28,260 nt of DNA from an uncultured Chloroflexia bacterium (GTDB taxonomy: Bacteria > Chloroflexota > Limnocylindria > Limnocylindrales > CSP1-4). Shown in pieces: positions 3,497-28,260 of the stretch (position 1 is the first letter of the stretch; each line of letters opens with the position of its first letter). A program made the translations under genes and the position numbers. Under the pieces are notes generated by a model, which saw nothing but the letters and a program-made list of their open reading frames with translations, ran no database searches and was not told where the DNA came from. Location: the NCBI GenBank assembly GCA_963749705.1, contig CAVVNQ010000020.1:1-28260 (forward strand), read 5' to 3'.

Positions 3497-5630
3497 TCAG
3501 CCCTTGCTGAAGAACTCCAGCTCGGAGAGCGACACCGGAGCGCCGGCAGGGCCGTTGGTCTCGGTGATCGTGATCGTCATCGACTCGACCTTCGATGCGG
3601 ACAGGTCGAACGTCTGGGGATCGTGCTCATCCTTGAGCGAGATCGTCGTTGATGTGCCGTCGGAGAACGCCAGCTCGAGGGTGGCAGGCCGGCGGAGATC
3701 CACGAACTTGTCGGCCGAGCCCGAATGGACGATCACGGCCCCGAGATCGACAGGCGCCTTGAACGTGATTGTCAGGCTCGGCGCGGCCGCGTTGGCTTGC
3801 CAGTCGGTGTTGGTGAACGTATCGAACGCGATCCGCCCCTCGTGCCCCTTGATCTCGTCCGAGGCGGTCACCGTGGTCGGCCTGACGGGCTCAAGCGTCG
3901 GCGAGATGATGCGGCGGACGTTGTCCACGAGCGCCGGGATGCCGCCGCCGGTCGCGTCGTTGACGAGCTTCTGGATCGACGGCACGCCGACGTAGCCGAC
4001 GATCCCGAGCACGACGATCAACCCGAGCGCCAGTCGCACATAGGACATGAGCTTGCGGCCGGACGCCAGGCCTGCCTGGGCACCGGCCTTCATCGAGCCG
4101 CTTCGCTCGCCCGCCTGGAACGCCTTGGGCTGCTTCGGCTTCCGACGGAAGATCCGGCGCCACCAGGGCAGGGGCTTCTCGACGTGAACCTTGGCCTCGA
4201 CAAGGCTCGTGCCGCATCGCCGGCAGAACCGGCGGTTGGGATCGTTGGGTTCCGCGCAGTTGCCGCAGATCCGGTCGCCGGGCTGGGCCACGCGTCGCTC
4301 GACCGAGGCCACAGGCTTCGGACGGGCCGGCGCATCGGCGGTTGGGAGTCGAGCCGCGGGCTGCTGCGAAGGCGGCGCGACGTCCGGACGGCGGGCAGCC
4401 GGGTCCGCGGGTGGCGTGACCGGACGGAGCTGGGGCTGGGCTGTTCCCGGGCGGACCGCACCCGGCTGGACCGGCGGTGGCTCGATCGGGGCAGTCGGCC
4501 GGACCGATGCGGGCTGGACCGGCGACGGGGGCGTCGGCGTGAACGGCGTGGCTGGCGTCGGCCGCGGGACGGTGGGCTGCACCGCCGGCGGCAGGGTCGG
4601 GGGTGTTGGCGCCAGGGGTGTTCCGACCCCCGTGGCACCCAGCGATCCAAGCGTCACGGACGCGGCGCGAGACGGTCCGCCTCGGCGAGCCATCGGGGCG
4701 GGCGGCGGCTCGGGCAGGGGTGCGGGTGCGGGCTCGGTCTCCGGCTCAGTCTCAGGCTCGAGCTCCGGCTCCGGCTCCGGCTCGGGCTCGGGCTCGTGAA
4801 CCGGCTCGGGTGCCGACTCCGGCTCGGGCACGGGCTCGGGCTCGGGCTCGGGCTCCGGCTCCGGCTCGGGCACGGGCAACGGCAACGACTCGGCCACAGG
4901 CAACGAATCGGCCACATGCAATGGCTCGGCGGCCGGGACGTCGACCGAGGCCACTGGCTCCGGCTCGGGAATCGGTTCGGGCTCGGGTTCGTGAACGGGC
5001 TCCGGCTCCGGCGCCGGCTCGGGCTCGGGCTTCGGTTCGGGTTCCGTCACGAGGAGCGGCTCAGGTTCCGGCTCCGGTTCGGGCTCAGGAACGGGCTCAG
5101 GAACTGGCTCGGGTTCCGGCTCGGGCTTCGGTTCGGGTTCCGTCACGAGGAGCGGCTCAGGTTCCGGCTCGGGTTCAGGTTCAGGAACTGGCTCCGGTTC
5201 CGGCTCGGGAACCGGTTCGGGCTCCGGTGTAGGCGGTGGTTCCGGTTCCGGCTCGGGTTCGGGCTCCGGCTCGGGTTCAGGTTCAGGAACTGGCTCCGGT
5301 TCCGGCTCGGGAACCGGTTCGGGCTCCGGTGTAGGCGGTGGTTCCGGCTCCGGCTCAGGTTCGGGCTCGGGCACGGGCACCGGCTCAGCAACCGGCTCCG
5401 GTTCCGGCTCCAGGCTCGATCAGGACGACGCGGTCGCTCGCCGACCAACCACCTCCGGCTGGCCAGGCGGGCGCCTCCGCATCGGGGCTCGCGGGCGTCG
5501 CGGGTGCGCCGTCCGCGGCGGCATCATCGCCGCCTTCCTTCTGGCCGACCCACTCGAGGAACTGGCCGCAGTTCCCGCAGAACGCATCCGATGCGTCATT
5601 CTTGTGGCCGCAGTTCCCGCAGACGATCAC
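3497..5630 (-). CDS. CisA-like membrane anchor: double zinc ribbon, Glu-Pro rod, second zinc ribbon, TM helix, extracytoplasmic discoidin/NADase-type glycan-binding-like domain (split by a frameshift near 5410)
   Basis: ORF 5385-5630 starts [27 protein letters not shown]. Removing one base at 5410-5411 joins it to ORF 3497-5380: (EP)n, [42 protein letters not shown]-terminal [10 protein letters not shown]...VSLSELEFF. It is the last gene after baseplate I, as cisA is in S. coelicolor. Confidence 0.75.
4730..5418 (-). repeat. Coding Glu-Pro (GAGCCG/GAACCG-type) hexamer repeat with higher-order duplications
   Basis: About 230 codons of mostly (EP)n. Internal duplicated blocks at period 96 bp ([14 protein letters not shown], 5045/5141) and 102 bp ([12 protein letters not shown], 5227/5329). 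Confidence 0.9.
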
Positions 5631-5704
5631 TCACCCACTCCCCGAGATCCCGTGTCGGTGGGGGAGAGGATAGTCGGCCGCCGCCGATCGCGGGGGCCGA
5701 CCGC

Positions 5705-26606: not shown

Positions 26607-27794
26607 ATGCCCGACGCCGCATCGATCATCTGCCGCCGGTGCGGGACCGCCAACACGCCGGGCGACCAGTTCTGCGGATCGTGCGGGGCGTTCCTCGAGT
26701 GGGAGGGGCAGCCCGCCGAACCCGGATCGTCCGCGGATCCCGGCGCCGGACCGGGTGCGGCCGCCGGGCCGGTGCCGGTCGGAAGCGGCCCGCCGGTGGC
26801 CGGAGGCGGCTCACCGGTCGCCGCAACGAACGTTCCGCCCAGGACGTCGGGGATGCCGGACATCGTGCCCTCGGATCCGATCTGGCCACCGGAGCCCGAC
26901 CGGTCCACCGCTCCCTCCTCGCCGGCCGTCCCGCCCGCCGACGACGCCGCTGCCGGCCTGATCCGCTGCCCGTCGTGCGGGATCGCCAACCCCGCGACCC
27001 GGACGTTCTGCCAGTCCTGCGGGACCACGCTTGCACAGGCCGCCCGTGTGATCGAGCCCGACGCCGCCGCGATCGCCGCCGCCGTCGCCCGCCAGCCCGC
27101 CGGGCCATCCGCCGCCACGGCACCCGTTCCGCCCGCCGCGCCCCGGGCCGGCCGGGCGTCGCGGGGGTTCCCGACATGGATCCTCGTCATCGGGGGTCTC
27201 GGGATCCTGTTCGGCGCCGGCGTCGTCGCGGCGTCGATGCTGCTCAGCGGTCCGGGGCCCGGGAGCATCGCGACATCCGCCCCCGAATCGGCCGCGCCAT
27301 CGAGCGCCGTCGTCTCCGCGGCACCCAGTCCCACGCCGGCACCGGTGCAGCTGACGCTCAAGACGGCCAAGGCATCGTCGGTTGTCGGCAACCGGGCGAA
27401 GTTCGCGGCGGGCATGGCGATCGACGGCGACCCCAAGACCTGCTGGCAGGAGGGCAAGACCACCGAGAAGGGCCAGTGGATCGAGGTGACCTTCGCCAAG
27501 GCGCGGGTCGACGCAATCACTATGTACAACGGGTATGAGTTGTCGGACGATGCCTACTTCGCAAATCTGCGGCTGAAGGACGTCACGGTGTCGGTCAACG
27601 GCGGAGATCCGATCAAGCTCCAGCTGAAGGACGCGCAGGGGCCCCAGCGGTTCGAGCTGGGTGGCATCGACGATGCAACGAAGCTGCGGATCACGATCGT
27701 TTCGACCTACGCCTCGAAGAAGACGGCGTACGCGAACAGCCCATTCGACGACGCGGCGCTCAGCGAGGTCATCCTGGAAGGCGCACCCCAGTGA
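26607..27794 (+). CDS. Second CisA-like protein: double zinc ribbons, TM helix, discoidin/NADase-type glycan-binding-like domain
   Basis: CRRCGTANTPGDQFCGSCGAFLEW; CPSCGIANPATRTFCQSCGTTL; TM WILVIGGLGILFGAGVVAA; C-terminal ASS...AIDGDPKTCWQEG...GQWIEVTF...YNGY...ALSEV. Confidence 0.85.
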   Translation: MPDAASIICRRCGTANTPGDQFCGSCGAFLEWEGQPAEPGSSADPGAGPGAAAGPVPVGSGPPVAGGGSPVAATNVPPRTSGMPDIVPSDPIWPPEPDRSTAPSSPAVPPADDAAAGLIRCPSCGIANPATRTFCQSCGTTLAQAARVIEPDAAAIAAAVARQPAGPSAATAPVPPAAPRAGRASRGFPTWILVIGGLGILFGAGVVAASMLLSGPGPGSIATSAPESAAPSSAVVSAAPSPTPAPVQLTLKTAKASSVVGNRAKFAAGMAIDGDPKTCWQEGKTTEKGQWIEVTFAKARVDAITMYNGYELSDDAYFANLRLKDVTVSVNGGDPIKLQLKDAQGPQRFELGGIDDATKLRITIVSTYASKKTAYANSPFDDAALSEVILEGAPQ

Positions 27795-28260
27795 GCGCAT
27801 TCGGGGCCGCGGTCGGCAAGGTCGTCGGCCTGGGCGGTGGGCCGCAGCTCACGGCGGTGCTGCTCATCGGCGGGCTCGTGGTCGGTGCCGCCGCCGGCGG
27901 GTTCATCGCCTCCGGGCCGGGCGGCTCGCAGGGAACGGCCGGCGCGCAGCTCGAGATCTATCCGTGCCCGGACCAGGGACCCGCGATCGCAACGGTGTCG
28001 TCGGGGCAGCAGATGCTGGTCACCGGCAAGACCGCGGACGGGGCCTGGCTGCGGATCTACTTCCCGGCACCGGGCCGGACCGAGGGCTGGGTCCAGGCCC
28101 AGGCGCTGACGCTCGATTCGTCCGCGGATGCGCTGCCGGTGGGGGAGTGCCAGCCGGTGACCGCGGCCGTCGGTTCCGTGGCGCCGGGCCAGACGCTGAC
28201 CGCGATCGAGAACAACACGCCATCGCCCTCGCCGACGCCGGTCCCGACGGCGACACCGAA
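27791..28260 (+). CDS. Membrane-anchored bacterial SH3-like domain protein (3'-partial; absent from the ORF track)
   Basis: GTG overlaps the upstream TGA. Hand translation: MSAFGAAVGKVVGLGGGPQLTAVLLIGGLVVGAAAGGFIASG...LEIYPCPDQGPAIATVSSGQQMLVTGKTADGAWLRIYFPAPGRTEGWVQA...TPSPSPTPVPTATP, open to the window end. Confidence 0.8.
   Translation, partial: MSAFGAAVGKVVGLGGGPQLTAVLLIGGLVVGAAAGGFIASGPGGSQGTAGAQLEIYPCPDQGPAIATVSSGQQMLVTGKTADGAWLRIYFPAPGRTEGWVQAQALTLDSSADALPVGECQPVTAAVGSVAPGQTLTAIENNTPSPSPTPVPTATP

Follow-up and report, generated by a model that had tools for sequence, protein, structure and literature searches.

Genes of the locus

The window analysed here, the whole 28,260-nucleotide (nt) stretch of contig CAVVNQ010000020.1, carries a locus for a contractile injection system (CIS). 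Pfam searches found one sheath, two gp19-type tubes, a tube initiator with a LysM domain, a VgrG spike, a gp25 protein, baseplate J and I proteins, a Pvc16 cap and an AAA ATPase. The minus strand, read from 16279 to 3497, encodes first the sheath (Cis2-like, 14765-16279, also matched in PDB and homologue searches), the inner tube (Cis1a-like, gp19-type, 14294-14728), a protein of 128 amino acids (aa), a small DUF6760 open reading frame (ORF), a protein of ~668 aa and a second gp19-type tube (Cis1b/Cis5-like adaptor, 11190-11675, Pfam and NCBIfam). These are followed by a Cis7-like tube initiator with CIS_tube and LysM domains (10442-11179), the VgrG-like spike (Cis8, 8744-10432, Pfam and NCBIfam), a gp25-like Cis9 (8277-8675), a Cis11-like Baseplate_J protein (6328-8274, also TIGR02243 with 517 bits), a Cis12-like baseplate wedge (Tail_P2_I, 5705-6328) and a zinc (Zn)-ribbon membrane protein. 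A divergent block starts at 16462 on the plus strand and contains the cap or tail terminator (Pvc16_N, Cis16-like, 16462-17178), an AAA+ ATPase with WHD and AAA domains (Cis15-like, 17175-19289), a 235-aa eCIS_core/DUF4157 protein and a protein with three FN3 and two CWB2 domains. Beyond it lie a GerE/LuxR-type regulator on the minus strand, an immunoglobulin (Ig)-like single-pass protein, a PD40 propeller protein, a second protein with zinc ribbons, a transmembrane (TM) helix and a discoidin domain, and a TM protein with an SH3 domain. Which parts are present, how their genes are ordered and to what each is homologous are direct observations.

The window contains 128 ORFs of at least 80 aa. 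Because its G+C content is 67-79%, most of them are shadows of real genes in other frames, and frames were chosen by third-position GC. We scanned 40 ORFs against Pfam, and the remaining 88 overlap called genes in other frames. All genes have open frames with a third-position GC of 0.86-0.95, except for the zinc-ribbon gene at 3497-5630, discussed below as the CisA-type gene. Rfam returned no RNA family in the window. ARAGORN proposed a 98-nt tRNA-Pro(CGG) at 5223-5320 on the plus strand, but this call lies opposite a Pro-Glu repeat of the CisA-type gene, has no Rfam support and is almost certainly spurious.

Searches of the window genes against Pfam, NCBIfam and PHROGs detected no tail-fibre (including Afp13-type), holin, endolysin, PAAR or capsid family, and no membrane-complex family of the type VI secretion system (T6SS), TssJLM-like complex or ClpV within the 28 kb. 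The sole "endolysin" match in PHROGs is the LysM domain of the Cis7-like protein. An earlier note on this DNA had listed one sheath, two tubes, VgrG, baseplate, cap and ATPase, with no tail fibre and no lysis genes; Pfam confirms the set, and the absences hold within the window. Its gene calls needed two corrections, as the gene in the tail-fibre position extends to 5630 rather than 5380 and the 52-aa DUF6760 ORF had been overlooked.

Relatives of the locus and its host clade

The core proteins have strong matches in the PDB. The sheath matches 8bky/9gtp (E 3e-201) and 8bl4/9gts (E 5e-198) over its full length, followed by 9ezm (E 5e-123), the Anabaena thylakoid CIS (E 7e-52), PVC/Afp (E 1e-47 to 1e-51) and T4 (E 1e-16). 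The Cis11-like protein matches 9gtp_1K with E 2e-236 (residues 1-647 versus 1-649), and its next match is at E 4e-4. The sole PDB sequence match of the Cis12-like protein is 9gtp_E (E 7e-44), the cap matches 9gts_0A (E 1e-55), and the spike matches 9gtr_q (E 5e-72). We take entries 8bky, 8bl4, 9gtp, 9gtr and 9gts to be structures of the Streptomyces coelicolor or Streptomyces venezuelae CIS; the search output gives no organism for them.

Sheath searches found thousands of relatives. In species-representative genomes, a relative is encoded by 578 stretches, and we took the best 80 of these as loci L001-L080. Three plasmid clusters were added, from Streptomyces clavuligerus pSCL4 (L081), Kitasatospora (L082) and Streptomyces cadmiisoli (L083). 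Related loci were covered to 10-kb flanks, which end inside the CisA-type gene. The sheaths of the three plasmid clusters are 59-67% identical to that of the window, and all three share its gene order: sheath, tube, small gene, DUF6760, large gene, tube, Cis7-Cis8-Cis9-Cis11-Cis12 and a Zn-ribbon gene, with the cap and ATPase again divergent (the S. clavuligerus ATPase is 46% identical to that of the window). The accessory synteny extends to a LuxR-type regulator, BTAD regulators, a DUF4157 stretch and an Ig/TM gene. The best phage sheath is only 35% identical to the window sheath. A prophage tail or R-type tailocin was rejected on this value, on the presence of the cap and AAA ATPase, and on the absence of a lysis cassette in the window. 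Two marks of the extracellular CIS of the Afp/PVC type, a tail-fibre gene behind the baseplate genes and toxin genes closing the operon, were also not found in the window. Afp, PVC and AlgoCIS share with the window a sheath, tube, spike, gp25, cap, ATPase and DUF4157, but their scores are far weaker (for the sheath, those of PVC/Afp above), the Cis11-like protein has no match to their baseplate proteins, Afp13/Alg19 fibres and terminal toxin genes are missing from the window, and its tape-measure gene is in a phage-like position.

On sequence comparison, the window is a complete Streptomyces-type CIS locus in a Limnocylindria-type Chloroflexota genome, for which we use the literature's label, class IId. 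The kind of system is already known, and what is new is the host. With the CIS of S. coelicolor and S. lividans (CIS-Sc, SLP; sco4242-sco4263; class IId), it shares the core genes and their order, the divergent sheath and cap/ATPase operons, the lack of an Afp13 fibre, the lack of PAAR (as in S. coelicolor), a CisA-type gene following cis12, an Ig/TM protein of the Sco4256 type, a small protein with DUF4157, and regulators of the LuxR and BTAD types. It differs from them in its Chloroflexota host, in two CisA-type paralogues, in a CisA N-terminal arm that is a Pro-Glu repeat of ~230 aa, in added conserved PD40 and SH3 envelope proteins, and in an FN3-CWB2 insertion. It has one Sco4256-type gene with a jelly-roll end, whereas S. 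coelicolor has three, some with ricin ends, and no Sle1-like coiled-coil effector gene adjoins the window DUF4157 gene. We checked 19 genes, among them the LuxR gene, and none contains a TTA codon, so the window has no counterpart of the bldA-type control described for sco4263.

The gap between the spike and gp25 genes (8675-8744) is too small for a PAAR gene. We found a PAAR gene at this place in three related loci, L007 (17489-17878), L042 (17562-17948) and L063 (16756-17142). S. venezuelae and S. coelicolor differ in PAAR (Casu 2023), and the difference between these loci and the window mirrors it.

Cytoplasmic CIS have been described in Roseiflexus, Thermogemmatispora and Deinococcota and placed in class IId (Gaisin et al., ISME J 2026, PMC12998442). 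This lineage resembles the window in being fibre-less, IId-related and present in Chloroflexota. Particles of that lineage were seen free in the cytoplasm. It differs in that the paper reports no close cisA homologue in Roseiflexus (PMC12998442), whereas the window has a CisA-type gene. That paper does not mention Limnocylindria. Our literature search, which covered papers without their supplementary homologue tables, found nothing linking Limnocylindr* with contractile injection. Homologues of Sco4256 in class IId loci of Chloroflexi had already been noted (Vladimirov 2023).

The host assignment follows from the nearest sheath relatives. The best 120 have 83-99% identity, and the six that are named are all Chloroflexota or Candidatus Limnocylindrales metagenome-assembled genomes (MAGs). 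Among the best 80 of the 578 stretches, 52 are from Chloroflexota (Chloroflexia, Limnocylindrales and one Anaerolineaceae), 10 from Dormibacterota, 16 from Actinomycetota and 2 from others. The closest sheaths in this set are those of L001 (99%), L002 (96%) and L003 (93%), and the group values are 72-91% for Limnocylindrales, ~75% for Dormibacterota and 66-74% for Actinomycetota. The DNA identity of the window to L001 and L002 is only ~86% over 16-17 kb, and the window is therefore a different genome of the same clade. In a FastTree sheath tree with midpoint root, no outgroup and no printed support values, the sheaths of the window and L001 form a pair within a clade of Chloroflexota, with the Actinomycetota at the base. 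The tree holds 82 sequences, after two of 84 were dropped for covering fewer than 450 residues of the query sheath; as it has no outgroup, the direction of transfer cannot be claimed. The earlier note had pointed to the CIS of S. coelicolor and S. lividans and had guessed a host outside the streptomycetes, such as a Limnocylindria-type Chloroflexota. Both statements agree with our comparisons: the former with the gene set, order, CisA-type gene, Ig/TM protein and LuxR regulator of the Streptomycetaceae clusters, the latter with the Chloroflexota origin of the best sheath relatives.

In the Dormibacterota loci L035-L048, the ATPase, DUF4157 and LuxR genes have no notable matches within 10 kb of the sheath, apart from a partial LuxR match in L043. 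In L042, housekeeping genes (BacA, carboxyl transferase) appear within ~3 kb, past a cap-adjacent Ig/TM gene. Judged from these flanks, the Dormibacterota layout is either more compact or split.

Chaperone-like gene and tape-measure position

The best conserved accessory gene encodes the 128-aa protein (13852-14238, minus strand), found at 63-99% identity in 77 of the 80 loci. It has no Pfam family, and we call it tail-assembly-chaperone-like on the basis of this conservation, a match to phrog_508 "tail assembly chaperone" in PHROGs (E 5e-6) and Atlas clusters automatically named tail assembly chaperone (score 0.98). Its model has a pLDDT of 80.5. A fold search with this model gave no significant match: the best E value was 0.56, the HK97 tail assembly chaperone came up with a probability of 0.35 and YqbN with a TM-score of 0.45. 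The protein has no PDB sequence match either.

The DUF6760 ORF (52 aa, 13697-13855, minus strand, PF20546 with E 7e-13) is in the -1 frame of the chaperone-like gene, and in the window its GTG overlaps the TGA of that gene as NTGA. We surveyed this junction in 84 sequences, including the window and the three plasmids. A DUF6760 match is present in 80 of them, and the arrangement is identical in 78 of these 80, across three phyla. The 77 sequences that keep the usual register have a run of G 10 nt before the overlap, and a slippery-type heptamer lies two codons before the stop of the chaperone-like gene. This heptamer is G GGG GAA in 59, G GGG GGA in 7 and, counted by eye, G GGG GGG in 11 sequences; in L054 it is G GGA AAA. 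The "start" codon of DUF6760 is GTG in 50 cases, ATG in 14 and CTG in 14.

Frameshifting in phage tail assembly chaperones has as its signature a slippery-type heptamer near the stop, a -1 frame that is open and a start codon that can be dispensed with. The junction looks like such a programmed -1 frameshift. It resembles the P2/lambda-type chaperone pairs (E/E+E', G/GT) in that a small gene with a phrog_508 match lies between the tube and tape-measure genes, and in that a -1-frame ORF overlaps the end of this gene at a slippery-type heptamer. It differs from them in that G GGG GAA, the commonest heptamer of the window clade, is not fully canonical, and in that no significant fold match was obtained. 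Our literature search, judged by titles, found nothing on chaperone-type frameshifting in CIS, and Vladimirov 2023 does not mention it.

If frameshifting of this type occurs, the protein encoded next, at the tape-measure position (~668 aa, 11685-13691, minus strand), would be a true tape measure. This assignment is by position, as searches of Pfam, NCBIfam and PHROGs placed the protein in no family. It is disordered, rich in Ala, Pro and Ser, has no TM helix and is conserved only in its first ~120 aa and last ~35 aa. The latter segment weakly matches the same spot in S. clavuligerus (41% over 34 aa, E 0.012). The CIS of Streptomyces davawensis, which has the tape-measure-related effector Tme, likewise encodes a large and mostly disordered protein just upstream of its baseplate genes (PMC11126660). 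According to that source, Tme has a DUF4157 domain, TM helices and an endonuclease end; the 668-aa protein has none of these, and in the window DUF4157 is a separate small gene. In two related loci, the tape-measure-position protein itself carries DUF4157, namely in L049 (12613-14664, an Actinomycetota MAG) and L082 (19632-23363, Kitasatospora). The fusion in these loci and the separate genes in the window suggest that DUF4157 and the tape-measure-position protein may act together.

CisA-type genes, candidate cargo and proposed mode of action

The zinc-ribbon gene in the tail-fibre position (3497-5630, minus strand) starts 75 nt after cis12. Its main ORF (3497-5380) encodes a Pro-Glu repeat of ~230 aa, a Pro-rich stretch, a Zn ribbon (aa 372-393), a basic juxtamembrane segment, a single strong TM helix (aa 443-473) and an NADase-type glycan-binding (discoidin) domain (aa 507-621; NCBIfam NF047619, 50 bits at a cut-off of 38), the helix lying between ribbon and glycan-binding domain. 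An 81-aa ORF in another frame (5385-5630) encodes a further N-terminal Zn ribbon. Ribbon, linker and repeat are in one frame in L001, L003, L007, L009, L017, L025 and L078, and in a DNA alignment the window has one extra base at ~5410-5411 compared with L001, L003 and L007. We therefore read the gene as 3497-5630, frameshifted in this assembly. L002 and L018 also switch frame inside the same repeat, which suggests that the extra base is an assembly error, although it may be a real lesion. A real lesion would fit a locus that is decaying and non-functional in this genome, as CisA is needed for firing in S. coelicolor (eLife 2025) and a PAAR gene is lacking as well. We consider decay very unlikely: all other genes are open with the high third-position GC given above, the indel sits at the start of a GC-rich repeat with the pattern of an assembly error, and S. 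coelicolor is also without PAAR (Casu 2023).

Sco4242/CisA has been described as having a disordered N-terminus, a Cys-rich probable Zn domain before the TM helix and a C-terminal domain of the carbohydrate type of ~150 aa (Vladimirov 2023; eLife 2025), with a length of 468 aa (eLife 2025). The protein encoded at 3497-5630 has this layout of disordered arm, Zn ribbon, TM helix and glycan-binding end. It matches the gene after cis12 in Kitasatospora (37% over 300 aa, E 4e-43) and in S. cadmiisoli (29% over 275 aa, E 6e-27), as well as Streptomyces proteins of 474-477 aa (27-29% over ~275 aa, E ~1e-21), which likewise have two ribbons, a TM helix and an NADase-type glycan-binding end. A cis12 match is present in 53 of the related loci, 48 of which have at least 300 nt of sequence after it. 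In 41 of the 53, Dormibacterota and Actinomycetota among them, cis12 is followed by a homologous Zn-ribbon ORF whose start is no more than 700 nt away; none was found within this distance, despite room, in L004, L015, L028, L029, L032, L036, L040 and L074.

The location of this gene in the fibre slot and the glycan-binding end of its product would also suit an extracellular CIS, released by lysis of the producer to attack other cells, with the fibre-position protein as its receptor-binding protein. Such a role was first proposed for Sco4242 and argued for by Vladimirov 2023, where Sco4242 was detected in purified particles, and DUF4157 is a marker of extracellular CIS tied to toxins (Geller 2021). 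We regard this explanation as unlikely. The strong TM helix between ribbon and glycan-binding domain suits a membrane protein better than a fibre, and no lysis or toxin gene lies within the 28 kb. CisA is located in the membrane and is not part of the solved particle (eLife 2025), and the particles of Streptomyces (Casu 2023) and Roseiflexus (PMC12998442) were seen inside cells only.

CisA is required for firing and was predicted to bind Cis11 (eLife 2025). We predicted the complex of the Cis11-like protein with CisA-type residues 320-446 in three runs with three controls, scored by ipSAE. The score was 0.34 (runs 0.39, 0.31 and 0.34), and the best of the three controls reached 0.00. Contact agreement was at least 26%, and the partner pLDDT was at least 46. 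Of 157 solved complexes, 116 reach the ipSAE mark, as do 2 of 215 mismatches, but at values up to 0.60 only 18 of the 157 do so, along with both passing mismatches. The predicted contact lends weak support and proves nothing; it echoes the in-silico CisA-Cis11 prediction of eLife 2025.

The right end of the window encodes further envelope proteins. A second CisA-type paralogue (26607-27794, plus strand) has two Zn ribbons, a TM helix and an NADase-type glycan-binding (F5-8C) domain (NCBIfam, 92 bits at a cut-off of 38). It is covered by at least half in 4 of the 80 loci, and a ribbon match is found on that flank in 14 of the 80. Upstream lies a membrane or secreted protein with a PD40 beta-propeller and a choice-of-anchor-D domain (24465-26600, plus strand, Pfam and NCBIfam), present in 16 of the 80 loci at a coverage of at least 50%. 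Downstream is the TM and SH3_3 protein (27791-28258, plus strand, 3' end off the window; 23.4 bits, below the cut-off of 27), with an SH3 homologue at the same place in L007, L018 and L078. The order LuxR, Ig/TM, PD40 and zinc-ribbon/discoidin is kept in L007, L018 and L051.

Could these proteins hold the particle in place, as in a T6SS? A system stably anchored by the two CisA-type and the PD40/SH3 envelope proteins, firing outward through the wall into neighbours, would explain why the two CisA-type, PD40 and TM-SH3 proteins are kept together beside the regulator in L007, L018 and L051, and partly in L078, and would suit the LysM domain on the Cis7-like protein. This is quite improbable in our view, because the window genes include neither a TssJLM-like complex nor ClpV, LysM on Cis7/Afp7 is common to CIS, and the nearest studied relatives are free in the cytoplasm (PMC12998442; Casu 2023). 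The term "membrane-anchored", used in the earlier note, is likewise not borne out: Streptomyces particles float free, CisA is proposed as a transient recruiter only (eLife 2025), and nothing in the window shows stable anchoring. In the same note the locus was described as lacking a toxin. No toxin domain was recognised, which agrees, but a Sco4256-family member and a small DUF4157 protein are present, and the locus is not cargo-less.

The Sco4256-family candidate effector (23272-24525, plus strand) has two Ig/PapD-like domains (Cep192_D3 match), one TM helix with positive charges on its N-terminal side, a linker rich in Pro and Thr, and an end domain of 104 aa in which two Cys are invariant. 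Over its N-terminal ~250 aa, it shares 40% identity with genes inside the clusters of Kitasatospora (E 1e-61) and S. clavuligerus (E 1e-45). Sco4256 was described with the same layout of N-terminal PapD/Ig-like part, one TM helix and variable C-terminus, inside the cluster (Vladimirov 2023), and Sco4256-4258 were reported as CIS effectors (Casu 2023). AlphaFold2 models the end domain as a confident jelly roll (pLDDT 90.9). The PDB folds that match it best are the jelly rolls of nucleoplasmin cores, C1q/TNF domains and the tips of phage fibres (E values no better than 9e-4, TM-scores 0.36-0.63), and no toxin or enzyme is among the matches of this search. The model points to an oligomeric binding module rather than an enzyme; such generic jelly-roll matches speak neither for nor against a toxin.

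The DUF4157 protein (235 aa, 19442-20149, plus strand, Pfam and translation) has an HExxH motif but no toxin domain, and is 52% identical to an unannotated stretch of the S. clavuligerus cluster. Sle2 of S. lividans, also a small DUF4157 protein, connects cargo with the tube initiator (J Bacteriol 2026), and the window protein is of the Sle2 type.

The neighbouring 3xFN3 and 2xCWB2 protein (20406-22286, plus strand, Pfam) appears secreted and wall-bound, with an N-terminal hydrophobic segment (aa 8-30) that we read as a signal peptide. It is matched in 4 of the 80 loci, 2 of them at a coverage of at least 50%, all closest relatives. Its three 270-bp FN3 units (20830-21635) are 99.6-99.8% identical and its two 314-bp CWB2 units (21650-22278) 99.4% identical, which indicates very recent duplication or concerted evolution. 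We considered it as cargo, as it adjoins DUF4157, and dropped this idea because of the putative signal peptide and the restriction to closest relatives. The gene is probably a lineage-specific insertion, useful as a host hint and not part of the machine, which bears out the earlier view of the CWB2 protein as atypical of Streptomyces loci.

Three genes may regulate the locus. The GerE/LuxR-type regulator (22413-23060, minus strand, Pfam) shares 47% identity along its whole length with the corresponding regulator in the S. clavuligerus cluster and is present in 37 of the 80 loci. At the left end, two tandem SARP-type regulators (Trans_reg_C and BTAD, Pfam) lie on the plus strand at 2-1615, with the 5' end off the window, and at 1588-3147. 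Although they are left of the part covered by the earlier note, they are probably part of the locus. The S. clavuligerus cluster, too, has BTAD regulators on its flanks, and BTAD and GerE regulators adjoining extracellular CIS operons have been noted (Geller 2021). The stretches 43-1575 and 1587-3119 are 97.6% identical over ~1.5 kb, a sign either of a genuine recent duplication or of an artefact of the assembly.

Considering all these observations, we favour, as fairly probable, a cytoplasmic fibre-less CIS that is recruited by the CisA-type protein, fires at the membrane, carries Sco4256-type cargo and harms its producer under stress. The steps are modelled on the systems of S. coelicolor and S. 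lividans. Composed of sheath, tube, spike, Cis9/11/12 baseplate and cap, the particle would assemble free in the cytoplasm with the help of the AAA ATPase and a phage-type tail assembly chaperone, and the disordered 668-aa protein would be its tape measure or a lumen protein. In place of fibres, the bitopic CisA-type protein, with cytoplasmic Zn ribbons and disordered arm and an extracytoplasmic glycan-binding domain, may sense an envelope cue and bring the baseplate (Cis11) to the cytoplasmic membrane, where the particle would fire. The likely cargo would be the single-pass protein of the Sco4256 family, with the small DUF4157 protein involved in its handling, and the outcome may be death or remodelling of the producer cell under stress, with expression set by the LuxR and SARP regulators.

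Several points weigh against this proposal. Localisation, firing and target are not visible in sequence, and gene content was read within a window open at both ends. If the extra base in the CisA-type gene is real, the adaptor would be made without its first Zn ribbon or not at all. The S. clavuligerus gene in the CisA position matches the window protein only at the Zn ribbon, the kinship to CisA and Sco4256 was drawn from Streptomycetaceae cluster genes and published layouts rather than from the SCO4242 and SCO4256 sequences, and the Cis11 complex prediction is weak.

The Streptomyces CIS, CisA, the Sco4256 family and cytoplasmic CIS in Chloroflexota (2026, PMC12998442) are already published. 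New in the window are its host clade, the presence of a CisA-type adaptor beyond the Actinomycetota, a further paralogue of this adaptor accompanied by PD40 and SH3 proteins, and the chaperone junction. The Streptomyces-type CIS with a CisA-type adaptor and Sco4256-type cargo is thereby extended to Limnocylindria-type Chloroflexota and, via related loci, to Dormibacterota, in contrast to the published Chloroflexota example Roseiflexus, reported without a close cisA (PMC12998442). A broader proposal, which we put forward tentatively and with the balance leaning somewhat against it, is that a CisA-dependent, self-directed CIS may be the common form of this clade across Limnocylindria-type Chloroflexota, Dormibacterota and non-streptomycete Actinomycetota, each locus with two glycan-sensing adaptors and PD40/SH3 proteins, and with a tail made in the phage way, using a chaperone in two forms through a -1 frameshift and a real disordered tape measure. 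A real tape measure, if true, would contradict the published view of CIS without a typical tape measure. The conserved chaperone/DUF6760 junction offers a concrete handle on particle assembly and length setting. Should the mode of action be conserved, the use of a phage-tail machine for regulated self-killing would not be confined to the hyphal development of actinomycetes, and this claim would become testable across phyla.

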